Source: an uncultured Acidobacteriota bacterium (GTDB lineage: Bacteria; Acidobacteriota; Vicinamibacteria; Vicinamibacterales; 2-12-FULL-66-21). From it: 64,000 bases of DNA. The stretch's first letter is position 1. Each line of letters opens with the position of its first letter. This document shows positions 4,689-62,694 of this stretch, in pieces. Under the pieces are notes generated by a model. The model worked only from the letters and a program-made list of their open reading frames with translations, was not told the origin of the DNA and made no database searches. The DNA is taken from the NCBI GenBank assembly GCA_963810305.1, contig CAWEMY010000005.1, forward strand, positions 525,304 through 589,303, read 5' to 3'. Made by a program: the position numbers and the translations under genes.

Positions 4689-5780
4689 ATGGCAACTGTT
4701 TCCGAAGCGGCGGTCCTCGACGCGCTCCGCGGCGTGCAGGATCCTGACCTCAAACGCGACATCGTTTCGCTCAAGTTCATCAAGAACCTGCGGATCGAAG
4801 GGGACCGCGTTCGGTTCTCGATCGAGCTCACAACGCCTGCCTGTCCGGTGAAGGACCAGATGCGAGAACAGGCGCGGCAGCTGGTTGCGGCGCTGCCCGG
4901 CGTTTCAGCCGTCGACATCGAGATGACCTTTCAGGTGCGCGCGACGGTTTCTTCCGACGTGAATCGTCAGCCGGTTCCAGGGGTGAAGAACATCATCGCG
5001 GTGGGCGCGGGGAAGGGTGGCGTCGGCAAGACCACGGTCTCTGTCAACCTGGCCATCGCGCTCAGCCAGCGCGGAGCGCGTGTCGCGATGATCGACGGCG
5101 ACGTCTACGGGCCCAACGTGCCGATCATGCTCGGGATCAACACCCAGCTCCAGACCGACGGGCAGAAGATCGTCCCGGCGGAGCAGTACGGCCTGCAACT
5201 CGTATCGATGGCGTTTCTGACCAGTGATGATTCGCCGGTGATCTGGCGAGGCCCGATGCTGCACGGCGTGATCAATCAGTTCTTCCGCGAAGTGAAGTGG
5301 GACGCGGTGGACTACCTGATCGTTGATATGCCTCCCGGTACCGGTGACATCGCCCTCAGCCTCAGCCAATCGGTCCCCGTCTCCGGCGCGGTGGTGGTCA
5401 CGACCCCGCAGACCGTGTCAGTGGCCGATACGCGGCGGGCCGTGCGGATGTACCAGAAACTGAACGTGCCGACGCTGGGGCTGATCGAGAACATGAGCCA
5501 CTTCGTCTGCCCGTCGTGCTCGCACGAGAGCGACATCTTTGGCAAGGGAGGAGGCGAGGCGCTGGCAACCGAGCTCGCCGTTCCCTTCCTCGGCCGCGTG
5601 CCGCTCTACGAGCCGATTCGAGTCGGCGGCGATACCGGGGTCCCGATCACCGTCGGTGAGCCGGATTCGCCCGCCGCCCGCGCCCTGCGCTCGGCGGCGG
5701 AACAGCTGGCGGCGCAGCTTTCGATCGCCAATTACAACTCGAGCGCGAAGCGGGCGATTCCGTTGGTGCAGGTGAGATAG
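4689..5780 (+). CDS. apbC: Mrp/NBP35/ApbC-type Fe-S cluster carrier ATPase with N-terminal DUF59-like domain
   Basis: Deviant Walker A GKGGVGKTT and a CPSC pair (FVCPSCSHESDIFG). Typical length, 363 aa. Confidence 0.92.
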   Translation: MATVSEAAVLDALRGVQDPDLKRDIVSLKFIKNLRIEGDRVRFSIELTTPACPVKDQMREQARQLVAALPGVSAVDIEMTFQVRATVSSDVNRQPVPGVKNIIAVGAGKGGVGKTTVSVNLAIALSQRGARVAMIDGDVYGPNVPIMLGINTQLQTDGQKIVPAEQYGLQLVSMAFLTSDDSPVIWRGPMLHGVINQFFREVKWDAVDYLIVDMPPGTGDIALSLSQSVPVSGAVVVTTPQTVSVADTRRAVRMYQKLNVPTLGLIENMSHFVCPSCSHESDIFGKGGGEALATELAVPFLGRVPLYEPIRVGGDTGVPITVGEPDSPAARALRSAAEQLAAQLSIANYNSSAKRAIPLVQVR

Positions 5781-5917
5781 ACGCGGGGCGCGGGGCGCGG
5801 GTCGCAGTGCGGGATGCGCGGTGCGGGATGCGGGATGCGCCTTACACACAACCCGATTCGCGCCACGCCCGCGCCCTGCGAACCGCGCCCTGCGAACCGC
5901 GCACCGCGCCCCGCGCA
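5781..5917. repeat. Intergenic heptamer-repeat block arranged as an imperfect inverted repeat
   Basis: 5782-5837 holds about 8 units of CGCGGGG/CGGGATG type. 5870-5918 holds units CCGCGCC/CTGCGAA, whose complement is the same unit type. It fills the whole gap between convergent apbC and the MFS gene. Confidence 0.8.
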
Positions 5918-7090
5918 CTACGCGCCGCGTGACGGGCGAAGGCGACTCATCGCCATGGCGCCGAGGATCGGGCCGGGCACGAGCAGCAGGAACGCCCACC
6001 GCCATCCATAGCTGGCCGCGACGAGCGGCAGCAGTCTCATGCTCACCATTGTCAACAAGAAGCCGGCGCAGGTTTGGAGTGTCAGCGCGGTGCCGACGTG
6101 CGTGCGCGCGCTGTATTCGCTGACCAGCGCGGAGAACTGCGCGGAGTCGGCAACGACGGAAAAGCCCCAGATCACCGCAAGAACCAGTAACGCCTCGAGC
6201 GGCATGGCGTAGAGCAGCCCGGCGGCGGCCGAACAGGCGCCGCTGGTGATGAGGGCGAGGCGTGCGATTCGCGCTTTTCCCCAGCGATCCGCCCACAGCC
6301 CGGCGACAACGCAACCAGCCGCGCCGCTGGCAATCGCCACAAACGCGACGAGCGATCCGCTGCGGCTGTCCTCTGCCCCGGCTGCCGCCAGCGAGGCTGC
6401 GGCAAACGCAGCGATCCACGCCCACATCGCGTAGAGCTCCCACATGTGCCCGAGGTACCCGTAGGTGGCGAGCCGGGCGCCGCGGTTACGCACGACGGCG
6501 CCAAGCGCGTGCCGATCGAACGGCGCCGATGCCGCAACGTGCGGGCCGTCCTTGACGAAGAGATGGACGATGGCACCGCCAATGACGGCGAGCATCGAGG
6601 AACTCAGCATCAGCGTCCGCCACGACAGGTCGGCGGCACTCCACGACAGAAGGTGCGGAAACGCCGAGCCGAGGGTCAAAGCACCGACCACGACGCCAAG
6701 CGCGCTGCCTCGCCGCTCGAGAAACCAGCCGGCGGCGATTTTCATTCCCGGCGGATACACGCACGCGAGCGCCGCCCCGGTCAGCAGGCGCAGGGCAATG
6801 ATGGTCGATCCATCGGACGACCAGGCGATCGCCGCATTCGCCGCGGCGCCGGCGACACAGCCTGCGGCGAACAGCCGACGGGCGTTGAAAACATCCGCAA
6901 GGTTGAGCACGGCGCTGATCAGCGTTCCGGCAACGAACCCTCCCTGCACGGCGATGGTCAGCCACGCCGTCGCCGATTCCCCCAGAGCCAGCTCCGACGC
7001 AATGCGCGGCGCCGCTGCCGTTGCCGAAAACCACAGCGTCATTCCGAAAAACTGTCCGAGCGCAACGAGCGCCAGCATTCGCTGCGGCAT
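5918..7090 (-). CDS. MFS transporter (390 aa)
   Basis: C-terminal 390 aa of track ORF 5918..9088, starting MPQRMLALVALGQFFG. About 12 hydrophobic helices. The rest of that 1056-aa ORF is antisense to ggt. Confidence 0.85.
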   Translation of the reverse strand: MPQRMLALVALGQFFGMTLWFSATAAAPRIASELALGESATAWLTIAVQGGFVAGTLISAVLNLADVFNARRLFAAGCVAGAAANAAIAWSSDGSTIIALRLLTGAALACVYPPGMKIAAGWFLERRGSALGVVVGALTLGSAFPHLLSWSAADLSWRTLMLSSSMLAVIGGAIVHLFVKDGPHVAASAPFDRHALGAVVRNRGARLATYGYLGHMWELYAMWAWIAAFAAASLAAAGAEDSRSGSLVAFVAIASGAAGCVVAGLWADRWGKARIARLALITSGACSAAAGLLYAMPLEALLVLAVIWGFSVVADSAQFSALVSEYSARTHVGTALTLQTCAGFLLTMVSMRLLPLVAASYGWRWAFLLLVPGPILGAMAMSRLRPSRGA

Positions 7091-7132: not shown

Positions 7133-8980
7133 GTGAAATGGGGGACGCGGTGCGCGGGTCGCGGGGCGCGGGGCGCGGGGCGGGTTGTGGCGATCGTCGC
7201 CGCGTTGGGCATTCACGTTTCGGCGCAGCAGACCTTCAAGCCGATTCGCAGTGAAGTCCGCGCGGACCACGGCGTCGTGGCCGCCGGGCGGACGTTTGTG
7301 GCCGATGCCGGCGCACAGATGCTCGTGTCGGGGGGAAATGCGATCGACGCCGGCGTCGCGTCGATGTTCGCGTCCGCGGTGACCGAGATCTCGCATTTCG
7401 GCCTCGGGGGTGAAGCGCCGATCATCATCTACTCCGCGCGCGACCGGCGGGTCGTCGTGATCAACGGTCAAGGATCCGCGCCCAAGGGAGCGTCCCCGGC
7501 ACTGTTCGAGGGAAAGACCGCGATTCCGGGTAACGGGCCGCTGGGCGCCACCATTCCGGCAGCGGTCGACGCCGCGGCGCTCGCCCTGGAGAAGTACGGC
7601 ACCAAGTCGCTCGCGGAAGTCATGGCGCCGGCGATCGCGCTTGCCGACGGCTTCCCGATGTACGAGTTCCTGCGCGGCTACCTGCAATCCGAACGCAAGG
7701 CCTCGGAACCTTACGAGTGGTCGATCCGTACCTACTATCCCGACGGCAAGATCACCCCCGTCGGGGAGATGTTCCGACAGCCGAACCTCGCGGCCACGTT
7801 GCGGGCGCTGGTCGCCGCGGAGGCGCAGGCCAGAAGCGGCGGCGCGACGCGGGAGCAGGCGATCGTGGCTGGACGCGACGCCTTCTACAAGGGATCCATC
7901 GCCACGCGCATGACCGCGGCGGTCCGTGCGGCCGGCGGTGTGATGACCGACGACGATCTGGCGACCTACCGCGGCAAGGTCGAGGAACCCGCAACCGTGC
8001 CGTACCGGGGATTCACGGTCCACAAGGCCGGCTTCTGGAATCAGGGGCCGGCGCTGCTGCAGACGTTGCGTATCCTCGAGGGCTTCGATCTCGCGAAGAT
8101 GGGGCAGGGATCCGCCGACGCGACCCACACGATCGTCGAAGCGGTGAAGCTTGCGTACGCGGACCGGGACCGTTATTACGCGGATCCGGACTTTGCGCGG
8201 GTTCCGGGGCCGGCATTGCTGTCCGCGGAATACGCGACCGTGCGCCGCGCCTTGATCGATCCCGCGCACGCCAGTATCGAGCAGCGGCCGGGTGATCCAG
8301 AGCGCGGCGCGGCACGTATCGGTACAGATATTCCGGTAGAGGCCGGCTTTAGCCGGCCTGACAGGCCGGGCTCCAGCGTCCACCCAGAACCAGGTGACAC
8401 CACCTCGATCCAGGTTGCCGATGCGGCGGGAAATCTGTTTTCGGCCACGCCGAGTTCCGGATGGCTGCTCGGCGGCGCCTTTGTCGCGGGCGACACCGGT
8501 GTGCCGATGAGCAACCGGATGCAGGCCTTCCGGCTCGAGCCCTCCAGCCCGAACGTGCTCGCCGGCGGTAAACGTCCGCGGACGACGCTCACTCCGACCG
8601 TCGTGTTGAAGGACGGCAAGCCGTTTCTCGCAATCGGCACACCCGGCGGCGACAGCCAGGACCAGCAGATCCTGCTCGTCCTGTTGAACATCATCGACTT
8701 CGGTCTCGACGTGCAGGCCGCGATCGAGGCGCCGCGGGTCAACTCGCTGCATCCGCAGAGCTCGTTCGACGATCATCGCGCGCAGCCTGGCGTCCTCGAA
8801 GTCGAACGGACGCTTGCGCCCGACGTTCTCGAAGTACTGCGGTCCCGCGGGCACGTGCTGCGGCTCCGCACGCCGTACGGCATCTCGACGGGAGTGGTCG
8901 CCGCGGGCATCGATCCTGTCACCGGACGCCTGCGTGGCGGCGCCGATCCACGCCGCGAGCGCGCGCTGGTTGCCTACTAG
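7133..8980 (+). CDS. ggt: Gamma-glutamyltransferase family protein
   Basis: 615 aa with a signal-like N-terminus. The autoprocessing/nucleophile region is PGDTTSIQVADAAGN, and GTPGGDSQ is also present. GTG start at 7133. Confidence 0.9.
   Translation: MKWGTRCAGRGARGAGRVVAIVAALGIHVSAQQTFKPIRSEVRADHGVVAAGRTFVADAGAQMLVSGGNAIDAGVASMFASAVTEISHFGLGGEAPIIIYSARDRRVVVINGQGSAPKGASPALFEGKTAIPGNGPLGATIPAAVDAAALALEKYGTKSLAEVMAPAIALADGFPMYEFLRGYLQSERKASEPYEWSIRTYYPDGKITPVGEMFRQPNLAATLRALVAAEAQARSGGATREQAIVAGRDAFYKGSIATRMTAAVRAAGGVMTDDDLATYRGKVEEPATVPYRGFTVHKAGFWNQGPALLQTLRILEGFDLAKMGQGSADATHTIVEAVKLAYADRDRYYADPDFARVPGPALLSAEYATVRRALIDPAHASIEQRPGDPERGAARIGTDIPVEAGFSRPDRPGSSVHPEPGDTTSIQVADAAGNLFSATPSSGWLLGGAFVAGDTGVPMSNRMQAFRLEPSSPNVLAGGKRPRTTLTPTVVLKDGKPFLAIGTPGGDSQDQQILLVLLNIIDFGLDVQAAIEAPRVNSLHPQSSFDDHRAQPGVLEVERTLAPDVLEVLRSRGHVLRLRTPYGISTGVVAAGIDPVTGRLRGGADPRRERALVAY
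7146..7187 (+). repeat. Six tandem heptamers (CGCGGGG type) inside the first 18 codons of ggt
   Basis: The units are CGCGGTG CGCGGGT CGCGGGG CGCGGGG CGCGGGG CGGGTTG. This is the same unit family as 5782-5837. It encodes the GRGARGAGR n-region of the putative signal peptide. Confidence 0.8.
8336..8368 (+). repeat. Hairpin repeat element (GTAGAGGCCGGCTTTAGCCGGCCT + GACAGGCCGG) in frame within ggt
   Basis: The 9-bp arms AGGCCGGCT/AGCCGGCCT are identical to the copies at 49146-49241 and 59823-59870. Here it is translated as VEAGFSRPDRP. Confidence 0.8.
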
Positions 8981-11868: not shown

Positions 11869-12888
11869 ATGAAAGCCGTACGATTTCATCACCATGGCGG
11901 TCCTGAGGTTCTGTGCTATGAAGACGCGCCGGATCCGGTCCCGTCGACGGGCCGCGCCATCGTCCGAGTACGCGCGTGCGCCCTGAACCACCTGGATCTC
12001 TGGCAACGCCGCGGGATCGAACGCGTACGGATCCCGTTGCCGCACATCTCCGGCGCCGATGTGGCTGGCGAGGTCGTCGATACGGGCGGCGGCACGATTG
12101 CCGCCGGGACGCGCGTACTTCTTCAGCCCGGATTGAGCTGCGGCACGTGTCGGATGTGCGCGGCCGGCCTCGACAATCTCTGTCCGGACTACGATGTCCT
12201 CGGCTACATGTCCGACGGCGGCTACGCCGAGTTCGTGTCCGTGCCTGTCGGGAACCTGGTCCCGATCCCGGATGCGATCGATTTCACAATAGCCTCGGCA
12301 TTTCCGCTGACTTTTCTCACGGCGTGGCACATGCTGATCACCCGCGCCGCTTTGACGCCAGGCGACACCGTCCTCGTCCTTGCGGCCGGGAGCGGCGTGG
12401 GCCAGGCCGCCATTCAGATCGCGAAACACCACGGCGCGCGCGTCTTCGCGACGGCGTCACCGGCGAAATTGCAGCAGGCGTGTGAGCTCGGCGCGGAAGA
12501 GGCGTTCGACCACCATTCCGGTGATTTCGCCAGGGAGCTGCGGGCTCGCACCGGCGGCCGCGGCGCCGACATCGTCGTCGAGCACGTCGGTGAGGCGACC
12601 TGGGAGCGCAGTGTCCGCGCATTGGCCCGCGGCGGCAGGCTGGTGACATGTGGGGCAACGACGGGGCACCAGGCCGGCATCGATCTGCGGCATCTTTTTG
12701 CAAGGCAACTGTCATTGCTCGGCTGCTACATGGGCAGGAAAGCTGAGCTCGTGGCCGCCGCGGCGCTCTTTTTCGCAGGCAGGCTGACGCCCGTCGTCGA
12801 CGAGGTCATGCCTCTGGAGAACGCCCGGGCCGCCCACGAACGCCTGGAGGCCGCCAGGCAGTTTGGAAAGATCGTTCTGGTGCCATAG
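11869..12888 (+). CDS. MDR-family zinc-binding alcohol dehydrogenase / quinone oxidoreductase-like protein
   Basis: 339 aa. GroES-like N-terminus and a Rossmann motif AAGSGVGQAAIQIAKHHGA. Confidence 0.85.
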   Translation: MKAVRFHHHGGPEVLCYEDAPDPVPSTGRAIVRVRACALNHLDLWQRRGIERVRIPLPHISGADVAGEVVDTGGGTIAAGTRVLLQPGLSCGTCRMCAAGLDNLCPDYDVLGYMSDGGYAEFVSVPVGNLVPIPDAIDFTIASAFPLTFLTAWHMLITRAALTPGDTVLVLAAGSGVGQAAIQIAKHHGARVFATASPAKLQQACELGAEEAFDHHSGDFARELRARTGGRGADIVVEHVGEATWERSVRALARGGRLVTCGATTGHQAGIDLRHLFARQLSLLGCYMGRKAELVAAAALFFAGRLTPVVDEVMPLENARAAHERLEAARQFGKIVLVP

Positions 12889-12968: not shown

Positions 12969-13172
12969 ATGAGCTTCGCCAGGCTGAGCCTCAGTCTCGC
13001 GGCCGTGATCGGCCTTATTGCGACCGCGCTTGCCGGCGCGACCATCTGGCTGCTAATCACCAATCCGGTTGACGTCGCCGAAGCCGTCGCGACGGGCGAA
13101 GTCTCTCCGCTCATGCGCGCGCTTGCCGGCGCCCTCTACAACGCCCTCGAAGGAATCGTCAAATATCTGTAG
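12969..13172 (+). CDS. Small hypothetical membrane protein (67 aa)
   Basis: One clear TM helix (LSLAAVIGLIATALAGATIWLLI). The stop codon lies inside the 28-nt palindrome. No Shine-Dalgarno sequence seen. Confidence 0.45.
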   Translation: MSFARLSLSLAAVIGLIATALAGATIWLLITNPVDVAEAVATGEVSPLMRALAGALYNALEGIVKYL

Positions 13173-13196
13173 GGGCGGTTCGCGAACCGCCCCTAC
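13169..13196. terminator. 28-nt perfect palindrome GTAGGGGCGGTTCGCGAACCGCCCCTAC between convergent genes
   Basis: 14+14 nt perfect arms. It contains the TAG stop of 12969..13172 and lies 4 nt from the stop of the minus-strand hydrolase gene. Confidence 0.7.
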
Positions 13197-13200
13197 AACG

Positions 13201-14262
13201 TCACTCCAGCGCTCGGCGCAAGAACCTGCAGAGGGCGAGCCCGTCCATCCATTTGAACGGCGAGACGCCGGTGCTGTAGTGGCCGCATGGCAGCACTTTG
13301 GTTTGATGCGGCACGCCTCGGGCCTTGAAGTCGGACACCAGCAGGCGCGACAGGGCGAGGGGGAACGTCAGGTCGTACAGCGCATAGACAAGCAGCGTCT
13401 GGCGGTCCATGACTCGATCCAGATACGGCCGCGGCGAGATCGGCATCCAGATCCGCCTCAGGGTTTCGAGGTTGACGTTGCCGTCGAGTGATTGACGCAC
13501 GTGCTCGGTGGAGAGTCCCTCCCAGATGACGTCTGCGAAGTACGGCGAAATGTGATTGAGCGCCGCCGCCTTCACAAGTGGTTCGTGTGCCGTCGTCAAC
13601 ATCGCCAGGCACGAGCCGAGGCTGGTGCCGAGCACGCCGATTGATTCGAATCCCTCTTGGTGCAGCCAGGCGATGGAGCGGCGCGCATCCAGAACGGCCT
13701 GCCGGTTGATGGCAATGGTTCGCCCGACGTTGGCGCTCACGATGTAGTCGGCACGCTTCAGTTCCGGCGGCATGCGCGCCTCGTGATAGGGGAGGGTGAG
13801 CCGCAGCGCCGACAGCCCGAATCGATTCAGCAAGCGGCATAGACCGACATGCCCCTCCGAATCCGCGTTCCACTGTGGCATCACAAGGACCGCGCGTTTT
13901 TTGCCGTTCTGCGAGGCAGGGAAGAAGCGGGCGATCACCGTGTTGTTTTCGGGATGCGGCGTGACGACGGCGCTCTGGAACGTCAGCCGGTCGCCATCGA
14001 CCGAGTACTCGCCCGGGGTTACCGCGAAAAAGTCCTGGCTGCGGCGCAACGCCTCATCGGCCCAGGCCATGAGACGCACCGCAGGGTCGCCGGGAACGTC
14101 CGGTAAGTCCGGCACCCATTCGAGGCCCCAGGCAAACGGACGGACTGTCCTGTTTTCAGCAGCTGCGGCAAGCCTCCGCTCCCAGTTATGAAAGGCTCGC
14201 GTCAGCACAGCTGTTCCTCTGGAAGGGATGTTGCAGCGGACTCTGCATGCATGAACAGCCAC
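13201..14262 (-). CDS. Alpha/beta-hydrolase fold protein
   Basis: 353-aa ORF with the nucleophile-elbow motif GTSLG (IGVLGTSLGSCLA). The exact start is uncertain. Confidence 0.75.
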   Translation of the reverse strand: MAVHACRVRCNIPSRGTAVLTRAFHNWERRLAAAAENRTVRPFAWGLEWVPDLPDVPGDPAVRLMAWADEALRRSQDFFAVTPGEYSVDGDRLTFQSAVVTPHPENNTVIARFFPASQNGKKRAVLVMPQWNADSEGHVGLCRLLNRFGLSALRLTLPYHEARMPPELKRADYIVSANVGRTIAINRQAVLDARRSIAWLHQEGFESIGVLGTSLGSCLAMLTTAHEPLVKAAALNHISPYFADVIWEGLSTEHVRQSLDGNVNLETLRRIWMPISPRPYLDRVMDRQTLLVYALYDLTFPLALSRLLVSDFKARGVPHQTKVLPCGHYSTGVSPFKWMDGLALCRFLRRALE

Positions 14263-14365
14263 CGCAGCCCGATGTTCCGCAGCCGCCGGACGTCATCAAG
14301 CGTCCGCAGCCCGTCAACAAGCCGATACCGTCCGGTGAACCGGTCCCTGAAGATCGTCCTGACGT

Positions 14366-15710
14366 TCACCCGGTGCCGCCCCCAACCGATCCCGGGCCCG
14401 CCGTGATCTGAGTCTCCATGGTCGCGGCGGCACCGAGCAGTTGATCGGTCTCTCCTGTGCGGCCGACAAGCTGCATGGCGATCGGCAGACCCGTCGACGT
14501 GACGCCGGCCGGCAACGAGATCGCCGGGTGTCCAGTGAGATTGAAAAGCTGTGTCAATCGCAGCATCGCCGCCCGGACAGGTTCCGGGCGGCCGTCGATG
14601 TCAACCGATCCGACGCCGAGCGGCGGCGCGGCGATTGGCAACGTCGGAAGCAGAAGCGCATCGCATCCAGCAAGCGCACTGTCAACTTCCCGGGTGAGCC
14701 GTTTCCGCAACCGCATCCCCCGCACGTAATCTTCCGCCAGCACGTACCGGCCGGTTTCAAGCCTGTTTCTCACCTGGGGTGAATAGAGCGCCGCGTGCTG
14801 TTCGAGCAGCGGCGCGTGGTACGCGGCGGCTTCGGGCAGGACGATGTGCAGGTACACGTCAGGCGTTGACCGCGCGTGGCCAATTGCGGCGTTGACGATG
14901 CGATGGCCCCGCGACTCGAGTGCGGCCTGCACCCGGTCGAGGGCGCTACGGATTTCGGGATCGAGCCGCTCGAGCAGGTAACCATCTGGAATACCGAGAA
15001 TCAGAGCGACCGGCGCGGATCCTTCGACAACCCTCCTGCCGCGCAAGACACCGAACATCAGCGCCGCGTCTTTGACCGATAACGTCATGGGCCCGACGTG
15101 ATCGCAGGTAGTACTCAGCGGGACCACGCCGTCGCACGGCACCTCGCCCAGTGTGGGTTTGAGGCCGACAATGCCGCATGCCGCGGCGGGGATCCGGATC
15201 GATCCGCCCGTATCGGTGCCGATCGATCCCATGCACATGCCTTCGACGAGCGCAACGGCGGCGCCGCCGCTGGACCCGCCTGCCGAGCGCGACGGATCGA
15301 AAGGGTTTCTGTACCGGGCCGAACGCGGACTCATCGCTGGTCGTGCCGAAAGCGAACTCATGGAGATTGGTCTTCCCTATGATGATCGCGCCCGCCTGCC
15401 GCAACCGCTGGACGATAGGCGCGTCGGCGGTCGGGCGCGTCGGCGGCAGCGCCGATCCCGATGTCGTCGGCACACCGGCGACGTGGACGAGATCCTTGAT
15501 CGAAACGGGGATCCCATGCAGCGGGCCGCGATAGTCACCGCGCCGGAGCTCCTTCATCGCCGCTTCAGCGTCGGCCAGAGCGCTGTCGGCCAGGACGGTG
15601 ATGAATGCGTTCAGCTCCGAGCGTGCTTCGATCCGCTTCAGGCAGGTCCGAACGAGATCCACGGGAGAGATTTCTCCACTCGCGATGCGCGGGGCAGTTT
15701 CGGCGATCAT
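14366..15710 (-). pseudogene. Amidase-signature family amidase, split by one frame change near 15311
   Basis: Track ORF 14946..15710 carries the N-terminus up to ...TSDESAFGPV. Track ORF 14366..15361 continues with RNPFDPSRSAGGSSGGAAV and the rest of the domain. Removing one base restores GPVRNPFD. Confidence 0.85.
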
Positions 15711-15856
15711 TCCTTTTGATCGGCGGGACCCGCCGCGTCGGCTTCGCGCAGGGCTTCAGTCGATTTCGCGATCGCTTCGAGCAGCGGTTTGAGCGCCGGC
15801 AGTCCGCGGCGTTCCGCGTCGGCGATGGCGCTCTTCAGCCAGTCCTGGACGGTCAT
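15707..15856 (-). CDS. Small hypothetical protein (49 aa) translationally coupled to the amidase
   Basis: ATG at 15856 overlaps the upstream stop (TGATG), and its own stop overlaps the amidase ATG (ATGA). Sequence MTVQDWLKSAIADAERRGLPALKPLLEAIAKS... No family recognised with confidence. Confidence 0.4.
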   Translation of the reverse strand: MTVQDWLKSAIADAERRGLPALKPLLEAIAKSTEALREADAAGPADQKE

Positions 15857-16536
15857 CAGAAGCTGACTGTACCGCGGAGCGTGATCGGGATTGTCAGAAC
15901 GCGGTGCTCGACCGGGTCGTCCAGCTTGTTCCACGCGAATTTGGCCGCGAGCTGCACGCCGAACGGACCGACCATGAGTCCGCCACCTCCTTCAGCGAAG
16001 GTCCGCGTACCGTCGTGGCCGCCATCAGCGGTGATACGGCCGATGCCGCCGACGATAAAGGCCATCGCACCGAGGCCCCAGCCCGGCGCTCTATCGGCGA
16101 CGTAGAGGCCGACACCCACGTCGTACGCCTTCGCGCCGGTCAGCGAATATGGTGCCGGAGCCTGTTCGCCGGCGAAGTTGATTCTCATCGTCGGCACTGT
16201 CTCGACGCTGGCGCGGATACCGAGGGTCGTGCCGATGCTCAGCCCGAACGGATAGATCGCCGCGCTGAATCCGCGGTTGCGTTTCTTGAACTCCACCACG
16301 TCGATCTGGATGCCGCCGTCGCGGGTCTCGTATTCGAATTCCCCGACCTGCGTCGCGCCGACCTCACGTCCGACGAGATCCTCCAGGGGATGGCTGGCAA
16401 AGTGCAGCGGCTCAGTGTGCATCCAGTCGATGCTCACAGTGACGAACTGGCGCCGCGGCTTCTGAACGGAATAATCCTGAGCGGCAGCAGGTGAGGCAAT
16501 GCCCAGCGCGATGACTGCTGTGATGAGTAGACGCAT
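15856..16536 (-). CDS. Putative outer-membrane beta-barrel protein with signal peptide
   Basis: Internal ATG at 16536 gives MRLLITAVIALGIASPAAAQD. The rest shows an alternating beta-strand pattern and ends in a C-terminal Phe. Confidence 0.6.
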   Translation of the reverse strand: MRLLITAVIALGIASPAAAQDYSVQKPRRQFVTVSIDWMHTEPLHFASHPLEDLVGREVGATQVGEFEYETRDGGIQIDVVEFKKRNRGFSAAIYPFGLSIGTTLGIRASVETVPTMRINFAGEQAPAPYSLTGAKAYDVGVGLYVADRAPGWGLGAMAFIVGGIGRITADGGHDGTRTFAEGGGGLMVGPFGVQLAAKFAWNKLDDPVEHRVLTIPITLRGTVSF

Positions 16537-16570
16537 GATGGGACCCGGTAATGTAGGGTAACGTACGACC

Positions 16571-17680
16571 GTGAACGATCGTATCCTCGCCGCCGTCATG
16601 ACTGCGCCGCGCGCACCGGTCGAGGTCCGAGAGTTCGCACGGCCTGACTTGCCACCCGGTTCCGCGCTGCTGCGCACCGAGCGATCCGAGGTGTGCGGCA
16701 CGGACGTTCATCTCTGGCACGGCCGGCTCTCCGGCGTCCCGTACCCGATCATTCCCGGGCACGTCTCCGCGGGGACGCTGGAGCGGATTCGCGGACCGCT
16801 GCACGCTCTTGACGGGTCGGTTCTGCACGAGGGAGACCGGGTCGCATTCTTCGACGTCCATCGCACCTGTGGCCGCTGTCGCGCGTGTACGGTGCACCGC
16901 ACGCCGACGCGATGTAGCGCGCGGCGGGTGTACGGCATCACCGATCCGGCAAGCGAGGGGCTGTACGGCGGCTGGTCGCAGGGGATCTATCTCGAACCTG
17001 GCGTCGGCATCGCGCGGCTTCCCGATTCGGTGACTTTCGACGACTACATCGGCGGCGGTTGCGGGTTGCTGACGGCGGTCCATATTCTCGAGCGGGCCGC
17101 TGTGCGTCCTGGCGATACGGTGCTCGTCCAGGGCACCGGAGCAGTCGGCCTGAGCGCGATCGCGCTGTCACGCACCGGCGGTGCCGCAACGGTGATCGCG
17201 GTCGGAGCGCCGGCAGACCGGCTCGATCTTGCGCGCCGCATGGGGGCGGATCACGTGTTCGATGTGACAGCGACCACCAGGGAGCAGCGGCTCGAAGGCA
17301 TCCACGCGCTGACCCACGGCGAGGGGGCGGACGTCGTTCTCGAGGCAGCGGGCGCTGCGGCGGCGGTCCCGGAAGGCATGGACCTGGCCCGGGACGGCGG
17401 CCGCTACGTAATCGCCGGCCACTATACCGATGCCGGCGACGTCCTGATCAACGCGCACCGCCAGATCAATCGCAAGCACCTGGAGATCCGGGGATGCTGG
17501 GGGAGCGAGCCAGGTCACTTCGTCCGCGCGCTGTCACTCCTCGAGCGTTACGCGTCGCGTTTTCCGTGGCGCGAAGTTGGCGGGCGCACCTACTCGCTCC
17601 GGCGCCTGAACGAAGCGCTCGCCGACGCGGAAGCCATGCGGATCACGAAGGCACTCGTGGACCCCTGGCTCGACTCATGA
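16571..17680 (+). CDS. Zinc-dependent MDR alcohol dehydrogenase family protein
   Basis: GTG start. Catalytic-site region EVCGTDVH, structural-zinc cluster CGRCRACTVHRTPTRC, Rossmann motif GTGAVGLSAIAL. Confidence 0.85.
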   Translation: MNDRILAAVMTAPRAPVEVREFARPDLPPGSALLRTERSEVCGTDVHLWHGRLSGVPYPIIPGHVSAGTLERIRGPLHALDGSVLHEGDRVAFFDVHRTCGRCRACTVHRTPTRCSARRVYGITDPASEGLYGGWSQGIYLEPGVGIARLPDSVTFDDYIGGGCGLLTAVHILERAAVRPGDTVLVQGTGAVGLSAIALSRTGGAATVIAVGAPADRLDLARRMGADHVFDVTATTREQRLEGIHALTHGEGADVVLEAAGAAAAVPEGMDLARDGGRYVIAGHYTDAGDVLINAHRQINRKHLEIRGCWGSEPGHFVRALSLLERYASRFPWREVGGRTYSLRRLNEALADAEAMRITKALVDPWLDS

Positions 17681-19075
17681 GACAGACCAAGATCATTGCC
17701 ACGCTGGGTCCGGCGAGCAGCCCGCCAGAAGTCATCGACGCGCTGCTTGGGGCTGGCGTGGATATCTTCCGGCTGAACTTCTCGCACGGTTCCCACGAGA
17801 GTCACGCCGAGGTCTACCAGCGGGTCCGCGACGCGGCTGCTCGACGCGGCTGTGTTGTCGCGATCATGCAGGACCTGAGCGGGCCGAAGATCCGCACCGG
17901 ACCGCTGGCAGCCGGCGCAACGCTCACGCTGCGCGAAGGCGAGGAGCTGCGGATTGCCGAAGGCGACGAACCAGGGCGACGAGGGACTCATCTTCACGCC
18001 GTACGGCGAGCTCGTTCGATCGGCGAAGCCTGGCGATCGACTGTTGCTCGACGATGGACGGATTGAACTGCGGGTCATCGATTCCGGTGAGCAGTTGACG
18101 ACGGTGGTGGTCAACGGCGGCGCGCTCGGCGGAAAGAAGGGCATCAACGCCCCGGGCGTGCTGCTGCCTTCATCCGCGCTGACCGCGAAGGACGAAGCGG
18201 ACCTGCGGTTCGGCCTGCAGCTCGGTGTCGACTATGTCGCCCTCAGTTTCGTTCAGACCGCAGCCGACGTGTTGCGGGCGCGCGAAGTCATGGAAGCGGC
18301 CGGCACGCGCGTGCCGATCATCGCCAAGATCGAGCGCCCGGCGGCGGTCCAGGAACTTGGCGCGATCCTGGAGGTCGCGCAGGCAGTCATGGTCGCGCGT
18401 GGTGATCTCGGTCTGGAGATGCCGCTCGAGCAGGTGCCGCGCGTCCAGAAGGAGATCGTCCGGCGCGCGCGTGCCGCAGGGCGCCCGGTCATCGTCGCGA
18501 CGCAGGTGCTCGAGTCCATGCGCGAGGAGCCCCGGCCGACCCGCGCCGAGGTGAGCGACGCCGCGAATGCCGTCGGAGAGGGCGTGGACGCCATCATGCT
18601 GGCCGGGGAGACGGCGGTCGGAGCGTTTCCGGTCAAGACCGTGCAGACGCTGGCCACGATCATCGCCGAAGCCGAGCAGACACCGTCCGGCGAGCGCATC
18701 GATCCGCTCGTCGACGCAACCGGAACTGCGCACGGCCGGGCGCTGTGTGAGGCGGGGGTGTTGCTGGCCGCCGTCGCTTGCGCCGACGCGATCATCGCGG
18801 TCACACGCGAGGGGAAGACCGCACGGATGCTGGCGGCGCTTCGCCCCCGCACGTCGATCATTGCGGCCACCGGTCAGGTTCGGGTCGCAGGCACCCTTGC
18901 ACTGCTTCGGGGAGTGACTCCGGTCATCACCCCCGAGCGCGACGTCGAAAGGCTGGAGCGGTTCCTCCTGGAACGGCGCCTGGTCGCCGCCGGTGCCATG
19001 ACCGTCTTCATCAGCGTCAGCCCGGATCTGACCCGAGTCGACGCGAACTTCCTGAACGTTCAGCGAGTGACATGA
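17677..19075 (+). pseudogene. pyk: Pyruvate kinase, split by one frame change near 17975
   Basis: MRQTKIIATLGPAS...FRLNFSHG...LRIAEGDEPG lies in the frame of track ORF 17059..18066. The sequence continues as DEGLIFTPYGEL...MVARGDLG... in track ORF 17954..19075. Confidence 0.9.
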
Positions 19076-20220
19076 AGGCGTGGGCCTTCATCATCGACAA
19101 CTCGCTGCTCCTGGTCGCGGGAGCCGTATCCGCCCTGGTGTGGGCCAATCTCGATCCGGCGTCGTACGAGCACTTCGCTCACGGGCCGATCCATTTCGCC
19201 ACCAACGACGTCGGTATGGCGTTCTTCTTCGCGCTTGCCGCGAAGCAGATCATCGAGGCCCGCCTTCCCGGGGGCGCGCTGGCCTCGCCGCGAGAAGCCG
19301 CAGTACCCCTGATCGCTGCGGTCGGCGGCATGGCGGGGCCCGCGCTTATCTACGTCGCGCTGGCTTCGGCGCTAGACCGTCCTGAGCTGTATCGGGGCTG
19401 GGCTGTCCCGTGCGCGACCGACATCGCGTTCTCGTACATGGCAGCGCGCCTGATCTTCCCTCCGAGGCACCCGGGCATTCCATTTCTCCTGCTGCTGGCG
19501 ATCGCCGACGATGCGCTCGGCTTGATCCTGCTGGCGGTCTTCTATCCGACCGGGCCGCTCTCGCTCGCTCACCTTCGTCGCCCTGATGGTTCCTGCGATC
19601 GCCGTGTCCTACGCGCTGAAGAAGTTCCGGACGATCAGCTTCTGGCCGTACCTCGCCGTCGGCGGGGGACTGTCCTGGTGCGCCATGTATTTTGGCGGCA
19701 TCCATCCGGCGCTCGCTCTTGTGCCGATCATGCCGCTGATGCCGCACGCCAAGCCGCGATCCTGGGTCTCTTCGACGCCGCGCGAAGGACAGCCTTCCCG
19801 ACACCATGAATCGCTTCGAGCATTTCTTCAAGATGCCGGTCCAATTCATCCTCTTCTTCTTCGGTCTGGTGAATGTCGGAGTGCCGCTCGGTGGCATCGG
19901 CACCGGCACCTGGATCGTGGCTGCTCGCGCTGCTGGTCGGAAAGCCGGTCGGCATCGTTCTGTCGACCGTTCTGTCGATCAACGCGGGCCTCCGCGCGCC
20001 CGGAGGCCTGACCACGGTGCACACCGTGGTGGTCGGCGTCGCCGCCGGCATCGGCTTCACGGTTGCCCTGTTCTTCGCGACCGCCGCCTTCCTGCCAGGT
20101 CCGGTCCTCGACGAAGTCAAGATGGGATCGCTTCTCAGCTTTCTCGCAGCCCCTGGCGCCATCCTGCTCGGCCGCGCCGTCGGGCTTCGCCCGAGCGGAT
20201 CCCGGATCGCTGATCGCTGA
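19072..20220 (+). pseudogene. nhaA: Na+/H+ antiporter NhaA, spread over three frames with about four frame changes
   Basis: NhaA-like segments appear successively in track ORFs 18778..19809, 19586..20011, 18778 frame again, 19806..20213 and 19873..20220. Junctions are near 19565, 19745, 19800 and 19915. Confidence 0.85.
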
Positions 20221-20267
20221 TCGCTTATCCCCAAGAACAGATCCCGCATCCCGGATCCCGGCTCCGC
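20198..20267. repeat. Heptamer tandem repeats (GATCGCT / GATCCCG type)
   Basis: The first array is GATCCCG GATCGCT GATCGCT GATCGCT TATCCCC (20198-20232). The second is GATCCCG CATCCCG GATCCCG GCTCCGC (20240-20267). Looser copies run on to about 20335. The block overlaps the nhaA 3' end. Confidence 0.65.
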
Positions 20268-20340
20268 CAGGCTCGCGCGATCCGCGGATCGTTCCGAAGA
20301 TCAGGGCATCACGCATCCGGATCCGGCATTCCGTTATGCT

Positions 20341-21465
20341 GTGCCGATGGAGGCAACCGACCGTCCGGTCGCGGATGCATCGTGGGACGAGCACTACCGC
20401 GACGAGCGTGACGCCGCGTTTCTCTATCGTGCGCTGGCGAGTGTCGAGCCGACGGTCGAACGCCGGGAGCTGTTCGAGAAGCTCGCGGCGGTCGAGGATC
20501 GTCACGCGCTTCGCTGGGAGGAACTGTTCAGGGACGCCGAACGACCGCTGCCCGCGCACGCTCCGGCGTTCAGAACCCGCGTCCTCGCGTGGATGGCGCG
20601 GACGTTCGGGTCCTCGCTGATCCTGCCGATGATGCTCGCTGAAGAAGGGCGCGAAGTGCAGGCGTATCTCGGGCTGGCGCGCGGGTCCTCGAATCGGCTC
20701 ACGCACAAGGCCGCCGTCGATATCGCAGCCGACTCCGCCGTCCACGCGCGCGAGCTGTCGGAGGCAATGGGCCGCGAAGGTGAACCGTGGCACACCGGCG
20801 GCGCCGGCGGCGTGCTGCGCAGCGTCGTTTACGGGTTCAATGACGGGCTGACGGCGAACTTCGGCCTCGTCGCCGGCGTGATCGGGGCGGACGTCGCCCC
20901 CCACATCGTGATCATCAGCGGCGTCGCCGGAGCGATTGCCGACGCACTGTCGATGGGATCGAGCGGCTACCTCGCGGCAAAAAGCGAGGCGGAGGTCCAC
21001 GCGCATCAGATCGAGATGGAGCGTCACGAGATGCGGCTGATGCCGGATCTCGAGGAGGAGGAGCTGGCGCTCATTTACGAAGCGAAGGGGCTGCCGGTCG
21101 ATCGTGCACGCGAAACGGCGCACGCGATGATGCAGGATCCCGCTCGCGCCCTGGACGCGATGGTCCGGGAGGAGCTGAACATCCATCCGGCGGAGCTCGC
21201 GCCACTGAAGGACGGCGTGATCACCGGCACCGCGACCGCCGTCGGCGCGTTCATCCCGATCCTGCCGTTCATGATGATGGCCCACGGCAGCGCGATCTGG
21301 GTGTCGCTGGCGATCAGCATGCTCGCGCATTTCGCCATCGGTGGCGCGCGCAGCCTGTTCACCGGCCGCGGCGTGTGGGCCAGCGGCCGCGACATGTTCC
21401 TGGTGGGATTCGGGGTCGCCGCAGTCGGCTACGCGATCGGCGAGCTGATCACGCGGATGCTGTAG
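20341..21465 (+). CDS. mbfA: Erythrin-VIT1/CCC1 fusion (membrane-bound ferritin-like iron transporter, MbfA type)
   Basis: The N-terminus is a ferritin/rubrerythrin-like domain (ERDAAFLYRALA...EDRHA). The C-terminus is a VIT1 domain (VYGFNDGLTANFGLVAGV). The ATG at 20347 is an alternative start. Confidence 0.85.
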   Translation: MPMEATDRPVADASWDEHYRDERDAAFLYRALASVEPTVERRELFEKLAAVEDRHALRWEELFRDAERPLPAHAPAFRTRVLAWMARTFGSSLILPMMLAEEGREVQAYLGLARGSSNRLTHKAAVDIAADSAVHARELSEAMGREGEPWHTGGAGGVLRSVVYGFNDGLTANFGLVAGVIGADVAPHIVIISGVAGAIADALSMGSSGYLAAKSEAEVHAHQIEMERHEMRLMPDLEEEELALIYEAKGLPVDRARETAHAMMQDPARALDAMVREELNIHPAELAPLKDGVITGTATAVGAFIPILPFMMMAHGSAIWVSLAISMLAHFAIGGARSLFTGRGVWASGRDMFLVGFGVAAVGYAIGELITRML

Positions 21466-21489
21466 GGGCCGTTCGCGAACGGCCCCTAC
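21462..21489. terminator. 28-nt perfect palindrome GTAGGGGCCGTTCGCGAACGGCCCCTAC carrying both convergent stop codons
   Basis: TAG of mbfA (21463-21465) and TAG of the minus-strand cytochrome c (complement of 21486-21488) sit symmetrically in the two arms. It differs from 13169-13196 only by a compensatory G:C to C:G swap. Confidence 0.7.
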
Positions 21490-33686: not shown

Positions 33687-33770
<84 letters not shown>

Positions 33771-49050: not shown

Positions 49051-49137
49051 TGGTGCGAAAGGGGGGATTCGAACCCCCACGTTCTTGCGAACGCCAGCCC
49101 CTCAAGCTGGTGCGTCTGCCAGTTCCGCCACTTTCGC
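49051..49137 (-). tRNA. tRNA-Leu (anticodon GAG), CCA encoded
   Basis: Reverse complement: GCGAAAG acceptor stem pairing with CTTTCGC, anticodon stem CCAGC/GCTGG with loop TTGAGGG, a long variable arm, T-arm GGGGGTTCGAATCCCCC, and 3' ACCA. Confidence 0.95.
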
Positions 49138-49145
49138 GATGAGGG

Positions 49146-49241
49146 CAGGCCGGCTAAAGCCGGCCTCTACCTGTCGAAGACCAGGCCGGCTAACCCGGCC
49201 TCTACCTGTCGAAGACCAGGCCGGCTAAAGCCGGCCTCTAC
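49146..49241. repeat. 2.7 tandem copies of a 35-nt unit containing the AGGCCGGCTAAAGCCGGCCT hairpin
   Basis: The unit CAGGCCGGCTAAAGCCGGCCTCTACCTGTCGAAGAC starts at 49146, 49181 and 49216. The last copy supplies the secG stop codon. The hairpin is the same as at 8336 and 59823. Confidence 0.85.
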
Positions 49242-58920: not shown

Positions 58921-58976
58921 GTGCGACGTGCGACGTGCGACGTGCGACGTGCGACGTGCTACGTGCTAGGTGCCAA
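58921..58976. repeat. Eight tandem heptamers GTGCGAC (5 perfect, 3 degenerate) between pgk and tpiA
   Basis: GTGCGAC x5, then GTGCTAC, GTGCTAG, GTGCCAA. The last units encode the final pgk codons and its TAG stop. Confidence 0.85.
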
Positions 58977-60149
58977 TGCCTCCACGCCCGGTAGTTTACG
59001 TCCGCCGAGGAATTCGAGCGAGGCCCCACCGCCGGTCGAGATGTGGGTGATCCGGTCGGTCACTCCCGCCTTTGCCACGGCGGCGATCGAGTCGCCGCCG
59101 CCGATGACGGTCGTGCCCTTCACTTCGGCCACCGCCTTGGCGATCTCGATGGTGCCGGTCGCGAAGGCGTCGATTTCGAACACGCCCATCGGCCCGTTCC
59201 ACGTCACAGTCTGTGCTGTCCTCAGGACCCGATGATAGCGCTCGATGGTCTTTGGTCCGATATCGAGACCCTTGCGGTCACCGATGCGTGGATCGCCGAT
59301 ATCGAGCATCTCGGTCGGCGCGCCGGCCTCGATTTTCGATGCGACGACGTGATCGACCGGAAGCTCCAGGCGCAGATTTCGCGCGCGCGCTTTCTCTTCG
59401 ACGTCACGGGCAGCATCGAGCAGGTCCTCCTCGACAAGGGAGGTGCCTACCGGAACACCGCGCGCCTTGAGAAACGTGTATGCCATCGCGCCGCCGACCA
59501 ACAGGGCATCCAGCCGCGGGACCAGATTCTGAATCACCTCGAGCTTGTCCGAAACCTTGGCCCCTCCGAGGATCGCGACGAACGGCCGGGAAGGGTTTTC
59601 GAGCACACGCCCGAGGTACTCGACTTCCGCCGCCATCAACAGTCCCGCCGCCGACTCTTTGACGTGCCGGACGATCCCTTCGGTTGACGCATGCGCGCGA
59701 TGCGCGGATCCGAAGGCATCGTTGATATAGACGTCCGCCATGGAACCAAGTTGGGCGGCGTAGGCGGGATCGTTCTTTTCCTCGCCGGCGTTGAAGCGCA
59801 GGTTTTCGAGGAGGACGATTCCAGGCCGGCTGTCAGGCCGGCTGTCAGGCCGGCTAAAGCCGGCCTCTACAGCGGAATCGAACTTCACCGGCTGGCCGAG
59901 GAGCTCGCTCAGCCTGGTCGCCACCGGCTGGAGCGAGTATTGAGGGTCGGGCTTCCCTTTGGGACGTCCGAGGTGCGAGGCGAGGATGATGACCTTCGCG
60001 CCGTTCTCGAGCGCGTACTTGATGGTCGGCAGCGACGCCCGGATGCGCGTATCGTCGGTGATCCTGCCGTCCTTCAGCGGAACGTTGAAATCGACCCGGA
60101 TGAAGACACGCTTGCCGCGGAGATCCAGGTCCTTGACGGTCCTCAGCAC
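58959..60149 (-). CDS. pgk: Phosphoglycerate kinase (intact ORF carrying an in-frame repeat element)
   Basis: Motifs FIRVDFNVP, ASHLGRPKG, LLENLRFNAGEEKND and ISTGGGASLEFL. The start abuts the gap stop with no spacer. Confidence 0.92.
   Translation of the reverse strand: MLRTVKDLDLRGKRVFIRVDFNVPLKDGRITDDTRIRASLPTIKYALENGAKVIILASHLGRPKGKPDPQYSLQPVATRLSELLGQPVKFDSAVEAGFSRPDSRPDSRPGIVLLENLRFNAGEEKNDPAYAAQLGSMADVYINDAFGSAHRAHASTEGIVRHVKESAAGLLMAAEVEYLGRVLENPSRPFVAILGGAKVSDKLEVIQNLVPRLDALLVGGAMAYTFLKARGVPVGTSLVEEDLLDAARDVEEKARARNLRLELPVDHVVASKIEAGAPTEMLDIGDPRIGDRKGLDIGPKTIERYHRVLRTAQTVTWNGPMGVFEIDAFATGTIEIAKAVAEVKGTTVIGGGDSIAAVAKAGVTDRITHISTGGGASLEFLGGRKLPGVEALAPST
59823..59870 (-). repeat. Hairpin repeat element in frame within pgk (codons 94-109: VEAGFSRPDSRPDSRP)
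   Basis: On the coding strand it reads GTAGAGGCCGGCTTTAGCCGGCCT followed by 2 x GACAGCCGGCCT. The core is identical to 8336-8359 and the 49146-49241 units. Confidence 0.8.
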
Positions 60150-62579: not shown

Positions 62580-62584
62580 GAAGC

Positions 62585-62664
62585 GTGCGACGTGCGACGT
62601 GCGACGTGCGACGTGCGACGTGCGACGTGCGATGTGCGACGTGCTGACGTGCTGACGTGCGCAC
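62585..62664. repeat. Tandem GTGCGAC heptamers (8 copies) followed by 3 octamer variants, between waaA and lpxK
   Basis: GTGCGAC x6, GTGCGAT, GTGCGAC, then GTGCTGAC x2 and GTGCGCAC. This is the same unit as at 58921-58976. Confidence 0.85.
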
Positions 62665-62694
62665 GTGCCGGGTTGCAACGTGCTCATGTAATTA

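Follow-up and report, generated by a model that had tools for sequence, protein, structure and literature searches.

RESULTS

A palindromic repeat lies in frame within pgk

The 64-kb stretch of acidobacterial DNA analyzed here (the window) carries a phosphoglycerate kinase gene, pgk, in which 48 nt were found to consist of a short palindromic element that we assign to the repetitive extragenic palindromes (REPs) tagged by the tetranucleotide GTAG. Codons 94 to 109 of pgk (59870 to 59823) read VEAGFSRPDSRPDSRP and are encoded by the 24-mer GTAGAGGCCGGCTTTAGCCGGCCT followed by two copies of the 12-nt unit GACAGCCGGCCT, a composition that had been described in an earlier note made from the sequence and that was recovered here at the same codons. 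When written by codon, the core is GTA GAG GCC GGC TTT AGC CGG CCT and each of the two additional units is GAC AGC CGG CCT. The hairpin arms, AGGCCGGCT and AGCCGGCCT, are perfect reverse complements that form 9 bp around a 2-nt loop (effectively 8 bp around a TTTA loop), in agreement with the 9-bp arms noted earlier. Tandem-repeat analysis detected the 12-nt repeat at a period of 12, with 2.8 copies and a 100% match. The open reading frame (ORF) of pgk was found to remain open with its Pgk motifs intact, as had been claimed; the protein aligns over its full length with solved phosphoglycerate kinases (1VPE, E = 4.7e-135, residues 4 to 392), and the predicted tryptic peptides covering the insert are FDSAVEAGFSR and PDSRPDSRPGIVLLENLR. 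The number of arms was observed to vary among near-identical Pgk orthologues, with three in P0001 (a protein 100% identical to that of the window) and P0007 and two in P0003 and P0004; throughout, P numbers denote Pgk orthologue proteins and L numbers denote related genome or metagenome loci.

The exact 24-mer occurs four times in the window, where its chance expectation was zero (100 shuffles, up to 3 mismatches permitted), and in total five REP units were found at three loci: pgk, the gamma-glutamyltransferase gene ggt, and the spacer between secG and a tRNA-Leu gene (Table 1). The identity of the ggt and spacer cores to that of pgk, which the earlier note had pointed out, was borne out by these exact matches, and at all three loci the REP is oriented with local transcription, as had also been observed. 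The ggt insert falls in an unaligned linker, with the large-subunit alignment stopping at residues 399-400 and the solved small subunits beginning at the autoprocessing Thr423. In the spacer, the final codons of secG are CCA AAG TAG, and this TAG (49240-49238) is part of the first GTAG of the REP array; the orthologous locus L007 has the same layout (secG end at 12292, REP start at 12289). Lone AGCCGGCCT 9-mers at 8025, 39453, and 51698 are without a partner arm and were attributed to chance.

The coding potential of the 24-mer was found to differ among its reading frames. In the forward orientation, frame 2 meets a stop at G|TAG and frame 3 at AGA GGC CGG CTT TAG, with frame 1 alone open; a TTC loop variant makes frame 3 open as well. 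The reverse strand offers two open frames (RPAKAGLY and GRLKPAST), and its third meets TAA. The earlier note had drawn attention to the common frame of the pgk and ggt copies, and both genes do read VEAGFSRP; this agreement nonetheless carries no evidence, because both other forward frames contain TAG and the common frame is forced. The TAG of the tag was also found to end coding-like ORFs lying upstream, which was the case at 11 of 139 unique family sites among the matches listed, secG included.

Distribution and anatomy of the repeat family

A scan of one genome per species for the exact 24-mer returned six contigs of four metagenome-assembled genomes (MAGs), two labelled Vicinamibacterales, one Acidobacteria, and one Acidimicrobiia. 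Vicinamibacterales are also the source of the closest named Pgk homologues. The exact 24-mer, with T or C in the loop, was also detected on at least 120 soil-metagenome contigs, and the pgk core is an exact match to this family master sequence. Among the matches listed, 139 unique family sites were distinguished, intergenic for the most part. A same-orientation copy within 40 nt was present at 34 of the 136 sites with complete flanks, and an inverted REP tail lay immediately upstream at 21. The flanks of these 136 copies include GTAC on the 5′ side of 38 and GAC on the 3′ side of 23, and an arm duplication like that of pgk follows nine.

Variants of the family were found to change their arms in concert such that pairing is kept (GGGCCGCC/GGCGGCCC, GGGCCGAC/GTCGGCCC, and CGTCCGGC/GCCGGAC), and GTAG and arm complementarity were retained in every family variant found. 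Inverted doublets of the form GGGCCGCCTAAAGGCGGCCCCTAC-GTAC-GTAGAGGCCGGC..., with the junction ...CCCCTAC-GTAC-GTAGAGG..., were identified in L002, L003, L034, and L131, and tandem arrays in the window (49146-49241), L030, and L044. By this anatomy, the element is classed as a GTAG-tagged REP.

Other element classes were considered. An intrinsic transcription terminator was ruled out, as no T run follows the hairpins, whose downstream sequence is GACAGCC, GGTCTTCG, or GCCCTCAT. A miniature inverted-repeat transposable element (70 to 300 bp with 15- to 30-bp terminal inverted repeats and a target-site duplication) was likewise ruled out, as the unit is a single 24-nt hairpin and its flanks are without duplication. 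An Rfam search of the region at gathering thresholds matched the tRNA alone and returned no family for the hairpin.

An unusual arrangement was observed in L003 (1054-1546), where five REP doublets lie about 110 nt apart and each is followed by an identical ribosome-binding site and start, ATGGCAACTGTTCTG. The pattern suggests that a segment comprising REP and gene start has been amplified in tandem. As the MAG of this contig is labelled Acidimicrobiia, mis-binning is possible.

REPs flank a RAYT transposase gene in related contigs

REPs are non-autonomous hairpin elements thought to be spread in trans by a single-copy HUH/Y1 transposase, the REP-associated tyrosine transposase (RAYT), which studies of TnpA-REP in E. 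coli and of REPINs (REP doublets) in Pseudomonas suggest acts on the single-stranded hairpin beside GTAG. RAYT genes were sought by tblastn with an E. coli RAYT sequence, followed by Pfam analysis of ORFs beside REPs. Of the ORFs that the search detected next to REPs in several metagenome loci, three (in L115, L043, and L127) were found to exceed the Pfam cut-off for Y1_Tnp. The ORF of L115 (379-885, plus strand, E = 8e-9) is preceded by three forward REPs (228-373) and followed by three reverse REPs (892-985), two of which are exactly GTAGAGGCCGGCTTCAGCCGGCCT, i.e., of pgk-type sequence; that of L043 (62-571, minus strand, E = 4e-6) is bracketed by REPs in the same manner. As read from the sequence, this layout is the defining arrangement of REP-RAYT systems. 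The RAYT of L127, which has a different REP type at its flanks, has E. coli TnpA-REP as its best solved relative (4ER8, E = 3e-7). The REP-adjacent RAYTs retain the HUH motif and the Tyr of Y..NP and are about 27% identical to the E. coli protein.

The L127 gene (1051-1699) and a counterpart in L086 (7111-8845) represent a second RAYT gene that lies directly downstream of mutL and is flanked by REPs of the type GTAGGCCGGGTCCTTTCGGACCCGGC. The mutL linker beside this gene carries a REP of the VEAGFSRP type. As the second RAYT has its own REP type, these genomes carry at least two REP-RAYT systems.

At least 12 protein families contain in-frame copies

Intragenic candidates were defined as ORFs that continue across a REP and extend at least 60 codons beyond it on either side; they were then checked with Pfam. 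This analysis confirmed eleven families; the GT9 heptosyltransferase was taken from the precomputed Pfam annotation of its gene call, such that in-frame REPs were found in at least 12 protein families (Table 1). Two other coding tests were dropped: (i) a threshold on GC content at third codon positions, which missed even pgk and ggt; and (ii) a codon log-likelihood test, which under-called intragenic copies. ORFs without Pfam support (L015/L054, L065, L092, L021, L084, L078, L018, and L023) were not counted, nor were two in which the insert is N-terminal of the sole domain (L036 and L128). About 26 of the 156 sampled copies were intragenic, in a sample biased by exact-match retrieval and by the deliberate fetching of pgk loci. 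The Pfam domains around the REP were intact in Pgk, Ggt, and 10 further families, and the insertion sites in all 12 were inter-domain linkers or positions that stretch a domain match. Doublets were also detected inside proteins, e.g., GRLKPAPT-V-VEAGFSRP in the ThiF-rhodanese linker. Forward copies were read in the VEAGFSRP frame and reverse ones in the GRLKPAST frame, and the RPAKAGLY frame was used by none of the 12 families.

About 5 kb separates pgk from the gene for the GT9 heptosyltransferase. In L007 this gene has an in-frame REP doublet at 5057-5132 (VEADFSRP-VE-GRLKPAST), with a frameshift about 20 nt further on that splits the gene call. Its linker contains a single in-frame REP in L011 (5036-5059) and the remnant 'VEPAST' in L010 (~5100).

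The Pgk insert forms a predicted disordered loop and exists in all states among orthologues

An AlphaFold model of the window Pgk had a mean predicted local distance difference test score (pLDDT) of 85.6 and a predicted template modeling score (pTM) of 0.83, and only residues 95 to 106 were below 50 in pLDDT. These residues sit between the strands at 89-91 (VKF) and 110-114 (IVLLE), and by this model the insert is a disordered surface loop. The T. maritima enzyme (1VPE) has 20 residues in this segment, VPAVVGDEVKKAVEELKEGE, a helix included, and the window Pgk also has 20. Among 120 orthologues, three loop states were distinguished: (i) a canonical helix (EDCIGPAA.AAIERA..GGK); (ii) a short turn (DDPKADG or GEGDSG); and (iii) a REP-derived segment of widely varying length. 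The earlier proposal that the insert replaces native residues rather than adding to them thus holds against canonical phosphoglycerate kinases such as 1VPE, in which a helix segment of equal length occupies the site, but not against the nearest insert-free orthologues, to whose turn of 6 to 7 residues (GEGDSG, DDPKADG) the REP adds about 13 to 14.

When the site was compared at the DNA level in eleven Pgk orthologues, the REP was found as a single copy, with one or more additional arms, as complete tandem units, in decayed form, as a 12-nt remnant, or without trace (Table 1). Length changes at the site were multiples of three throughout. The earlier note had stated that its reading would be refuted by the same peptide in orthologues from genomes lacking the repeat. 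The comparison gave no such refutation: all peptide-bearing orthologues checked at the DNA level carry REP DNA or a recognizable decayed copy.

In two orthologues, P0008 and P0007, short stretches of unrelated residues were seen where the other orthologues are conserved (alignment columns 130-160 and 345-365), and the aberrant stretch of P0008 starts straight after the REP ('EGLTAGLKSSSSKTCASTPARKRTIPRTPPNL'). These stretches look like local frameshifts, possibly from repeat-induced indels or assembly errors. In L011, the gap-pgk-tpiA-secG cluster is followed by phage-like genes (13000-21293; AAA_25, TerL_ATPase, Phage_integrase), which may be an element integrated near the tRNA-Leu gene downstream of secG.

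Table 1. REP copies and associated features in the window, the protein families with in-frame REPs, and the state of the Pgk site in eleven orthologues
Feature	Position in window, or locus	Strand or frame	Description
pgk, phosphoglycerate kinase, insert host	58959..60149	minus	396 aa; PF00162 on all homologue matches
REP core in pgk	59847..59870	minus	GTAG + hairpin (AGGCCGGCT TT AGCCGGCCT); codons 94-101, VEAGFSRP
Two additional 12-nt GACAGCCGGCCT units in pgk	59823..59846	minus	GAC spacer + hairpin 3′ arm; codons 102-109, DSRPDSRP
Identical REP core in ggt (7133..8980, plus)	8336..8359	plus	residues 402-409, VEAGFSRP; G_glu_transpept, E = 7e-123
GAC + imperfect second 5′-arm copy AGGCCGGGCT, 3′ of ggt REP	8360..8372	plus	could pair with the preceding 3′ arm, as read from sequence
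Three tandem REP units, secG/tRNA-Leu spacer	49146..49241	minus	two exact (49147-49170, 49218-49241), middle (~49183-49205) with 1-nt deletion; period 35-36 nt
tRNA-Leu(GAG)	49051..49137	minus	begins 9 nt downstream of REP array
In-frame REP, Pgk	several loci	forward	VEAGFSRP
In-frame REP, Ggt	window	forward	VEAGFSRP
In-frame REP, GlgE	L017, L024	forward	
In-frame REP, Amidase_3	L027	forward	
In-frame REP, POT transporter	L049, L068	forward	
In-frame REP, ThiF-rhodanese linker	L069	forward	
In-frame REP, Peptidase M28	L073, L129	forward	
In-frame REP, MutL linker	L070, L082, L086, L127	forward	
In-frame REP, GrpE N-terminal region	L051	forward	four arms
In-frame REP, GT9 heptosyltransferase linker	L011	forward	
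In-frame REP, PriA	L006	reverse	GRLKPAST
In-frame REP, ClpB	L025	reverse	GRLKPAST
Pgk site	L007 (P0003)		REP + one more arm
Pgk site	L009 (P0006)		partial 5′ duplication, REP, one more arm
Pgk site	L013 (P0026)		REP + 9-nt duplication
Pgk site	L008 (P0021)		REP only
Pgk site	L030		3.5 complete tandem units, 33 nt each
Pgk site	L011 (P0036)		three copies of variant GTAGCGTCCGGCTTTAGCCGGAC, compensated G:C to T:A pair
Pgk site	L135 (P0029)		GCAGAGGCCGGCTTCAGCCGGCCT + decayed arm
Pgk site	L134 (P0016)		decayed: GTC GAG GCC GGC AGC CGC CCC
Pgk site	L136 (P0025)		AGYSRP from GCC GGC TAC TCG CGT CCA, without hairpin
Pgk site	L010 (P0009)		12-nt remnant GTCGAGGCCGGC
Pgk site	L012 (P0013)		no trace

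Other repeats in the window

A second REP type was identified in the window as perfect 28-nt palindromes whose two ends are GTAG and CTAC (13169-13196 and 21462-21489; GTAGGGGCGGTTCGCGAACCGCCCCTAC and GTAGGGGCCGTTCGCGAACGGCCCCTAC). Both times the TAG of GTAG terminates an upstream plus-strand ORF ('ctg tag'), and this REP type also lies directly after pgk in L136 (7176-7199). In addition, arrays of tandem heptamers, e.g., (GTGCGAC)n and (CGTGCGA)n, were found at 58921-58973, 62584-62668, 33687-33768, 5782-5929, and 7142-7182, the last of these inside the 5′ end of ggt. The array at 58921-58973 spans the pgk stop codon, and in P0010-P0012 and P0036 it is translated as a C-terminal tail (...SHVARRT), indicating that a second repeat class also leaks into Pgk.

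DISCUSSION

Origin of the pgk insert

We consider it highly probable (about 0.85) that the 48 nt represent one copy of a GTAG-tagged REP family belonging to soil Acidobacteria of the Vicinamibacterales type and that this copy has been lengthened by slippage of its 3′ arm. The insertion would have been driven by RAYT, and a short turn on the surface of the Pgk N-domain would have received the REP copy, perhaps repeatedly. Pgk would have stayed functional and the insertion would not have been purged because the 24 nt amount to eight codons, with a stop-free forward frame, at a disorder-tolerant site. Replication slippage promoted by the hairpin may then have altered the number of arms or units in threes, which would give rise to the (SRPD)n length differences between close relatives; the extra arms would fit slippage between alternative pairings, as there is one 5′ arm and several 3′ arms. 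The encoded peptide would most likely be a neutral passenger loop rather than a functional motif.

Several points weigh against this account. The tblastn search with the E. coli RAYT found no RAYT gene within the 64-kb window, so the RAYT link rests on related metagenome contigs, and the mobility of the hairpin family is suggested by analogy with other REP systems. The validated intragenic copies were in the forward orientation in 10 families and in reverse in 2, a bias (binomial p = 0.02 against 1:1) that is also unlikely against the 1:2 ratio of open frames (p = 5e-4) and is not predicted by simple tolerance. Peptide tolerance, strand-biased insertion, and an RNA effect are each a possible source of this bias. 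The conservation of the pgk copy is a further point. The window Pgk is 79% to 80% identical in protein and 75% in nucleotide sequence to those of L008 and L013, with 46% to 48% identity at 4-fold degenerate sites (effectively saturated); the REP, however, is identical to the window copy at 24 of 24 positions in L013 and at 23 of 24 in L008 and L135. At 75% nucleotide identity, the probability of 24/24 is about 0.001 and that of at least 23/24 about 0.009. The conserved copies also retain the rare codons GTA and CCT. This near-identity weighs on neutrality, since a purely neutral passenger should drift.

Such conservation could mean that the pgk hairpin is actively maintained, whether (i) by selection on DNA or RNA structure, through ribosome pausing or the protection or processing of a gap-pgk-tpiA-secG transcript; (ii) by homogenization to master copies, through gene conversion or recopying by RAYT; or (iii) because the site is an insertion hot spot. 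We regard this as rather unlikely, although several observations favor it. Intact copies still use the rare codons GTA, TTT, and CCT, which have drifted to GTC, CGC, and CCC in copies without a hairpin (L134, L010), and the three variant copies of L011 preserve pairing by the compensated G:C to T:A change at the cost of Ala-to-Ser and Pro-to-Thr replacements. In a neighbor-joining tree built without the loop, REP-bearing Pgk proteins are interspersed with clades that conserve the short turn DDPKADG, and L135 has a near-perfect copy while its neighbors are without REP. A 96-nt REP region also has a strong predicted fold (-44.5 kcal/mol, z = -4.0), but this is inherent to any REP; the tree is rough and its lineages are non-independent. 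Other lineages have let the hairpin decay with a similar peptide kept (AGYSRP in L136) or have deleted it, which indicates that any constraint is not general. Tentatively, we entertain an intragenic REP that is no passive fossil, with the Pgk loop as a recurrent landing site or its copy held at the master sequence by homogenization or hairpin selection. If true, an essential enzyme would have harbored a selfish hairpin across a divergence at which synonymous sites are saturated, and coding-region REPs would provide a natural clock-free marker of REP turnover and RAYT activity.

The persistence of AG[FY]SRP in several Pgk clades, even without hairpin DNA in L136, might instead suggest that the peptide VEAGFSRP(DSRP)n is native to Pgk or adaptive, e.g., a linear motif or flexible tether, and that its DNA identity is secondary. 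This is very improbable, as the same 24 nt occur between genes, flank a transposase gene, and lie within 11 unrelated protein families; close orthologues are without the segment or have it at freely varying length; and disorder is predicted for the segment. Copies between genes and beside RAYT largely refute the native-peptide reading. Less credible still is an artefact of assembly or binning, i.e., a repeat-induced chimera. The source does appear to be a MAG, and short repeats can mislead assemblers, but a sequencing read exceeds the insert of 24 to 48 nt in length, the frame is intact, and more than 10 independent assemblies (ENA, JGI, and NCBI) carry the same insert at this site, differing by small in-frame changes.

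Relationship to known repeat systems

A mobile REP copy tolerated in a loop of Pgk, the reading preferred here, finds its closest precedent in a survey of 24 GTAG REP families (Di Nocera, De Gregorio & Rocco 2013, BMC Genomics 14:522, PMC3733652), in which GTAG lies beside a GC-rich palindrome of 20 to 40 bp and the elements occur as singletons, tandem clusters, and head-head or tail-tail dimers. These REPs are mostly downstream of ORFs, for which the TAG of GTAG serves as a stop codon, and RAYT genes have the repeats at their flanks. A minority lie wholly within ORFs in several species, encoding short peptides, many of them in replication and repair genes, and were judged probably neutral in modular proteins (PMC3733652). 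The family described here is alike in its tag and palindrome, its singletons, dimers, and clusters, its TAG stops, its flanking of RAYT, and its intragenic copies, with MutL and PriA among the replication and repair proteins. It differs in its host clade, Vicinamibacterales of the Acidobacteriota, which is new, and in having a phosphoglycerate kinase host; phosphoglycerate kinase is absent from the list of decorated ORFs in PMC3733652, while a gamma-glutamyltransferase with an N-terminal dimer in Thioalkalivibrio is present. Also going beyond the published cases are the series of gain, arm slippage, decay, and deletion among orthologues at one site and the unusual nucleotide conservation of an intragenic copy. 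Since intragenic GTAG REPs and TAG stops were already reported in PMC3733652, the pgk case is largely ordinary and is no new kind of system.

The family also resembles E. coli REPs and bacterial interspersed mosaic elements with their TnpA-REP (4ER8) and the P. fluorescens REPIN-RAYT system (Bertels & Rainey 2011, PMC3116915) in its 5′ GTAG hairpin, in its Y1/HUH transposase with conserved HUH motif and catalytic Tyr, and in the inverted repeats at the flanks of the transposase gene. Its inverted doublets, with CTAC-GTAC-GTAG junctions, resemble Pseudomonas REPINs. In contrast to the E. coli and Pseudomonas REPs, which are described as essentially extragenic, about one sixth of the copies sampled here are intragenic.

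The earlier note had viewed the insert as part of a selfish family like the Rickettsia palindromic elements (RPEs) that has colonized an essential enzyme. RPEs, reportedly described by Ogata et al. in 2000, are said to be palindromic repeats found in frame within functional, often essential, proteins, at surface-exposed segments. RPE-1 is about 100 to 150 bp and encodes 30 to 50 residues; to our knowledge it is without a GTAG tag, has no known dedicated transposase, and is confined to Rickettsia. The likeness holds for in-frame insertion of selfish hairpin repeats into functional protein genes without disruption, but the family described here has a 24-nt unit, a GTAG tag, an acidobacterial host, and no sequence similarity to RPEs. 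As length, tag, and lineage differ, the analogy covers the outcome and not membership, and GTAG REPs with a cognate RAYT are the closer known family. The short RPE-4 and RPE-6 are tagged by CGTC and not by GTAG (PMC3733652).

Implications

For annotation, VEAGFSRP, GRLKPAST, and (SRPD)n in acidobacterial proteins are to be read as repeat-derived loops and not as motifs, and several gene ends are set by a TAG that a REP supplies. In evolutionary terms, a 24-nt hairpin can pass the filter imposed by reading frame, stop codons, and tolerance of the structure, and a REP that has done so may then act as a generator of in-frame indels within an essential enzyme. The Pgk orthologues display every state of such a copy, intact, expanded, decayed, and deleted, and this series bears on how REPIN-RAYT systems persist, through copies that are homogenized or through copies that are re-inserted.

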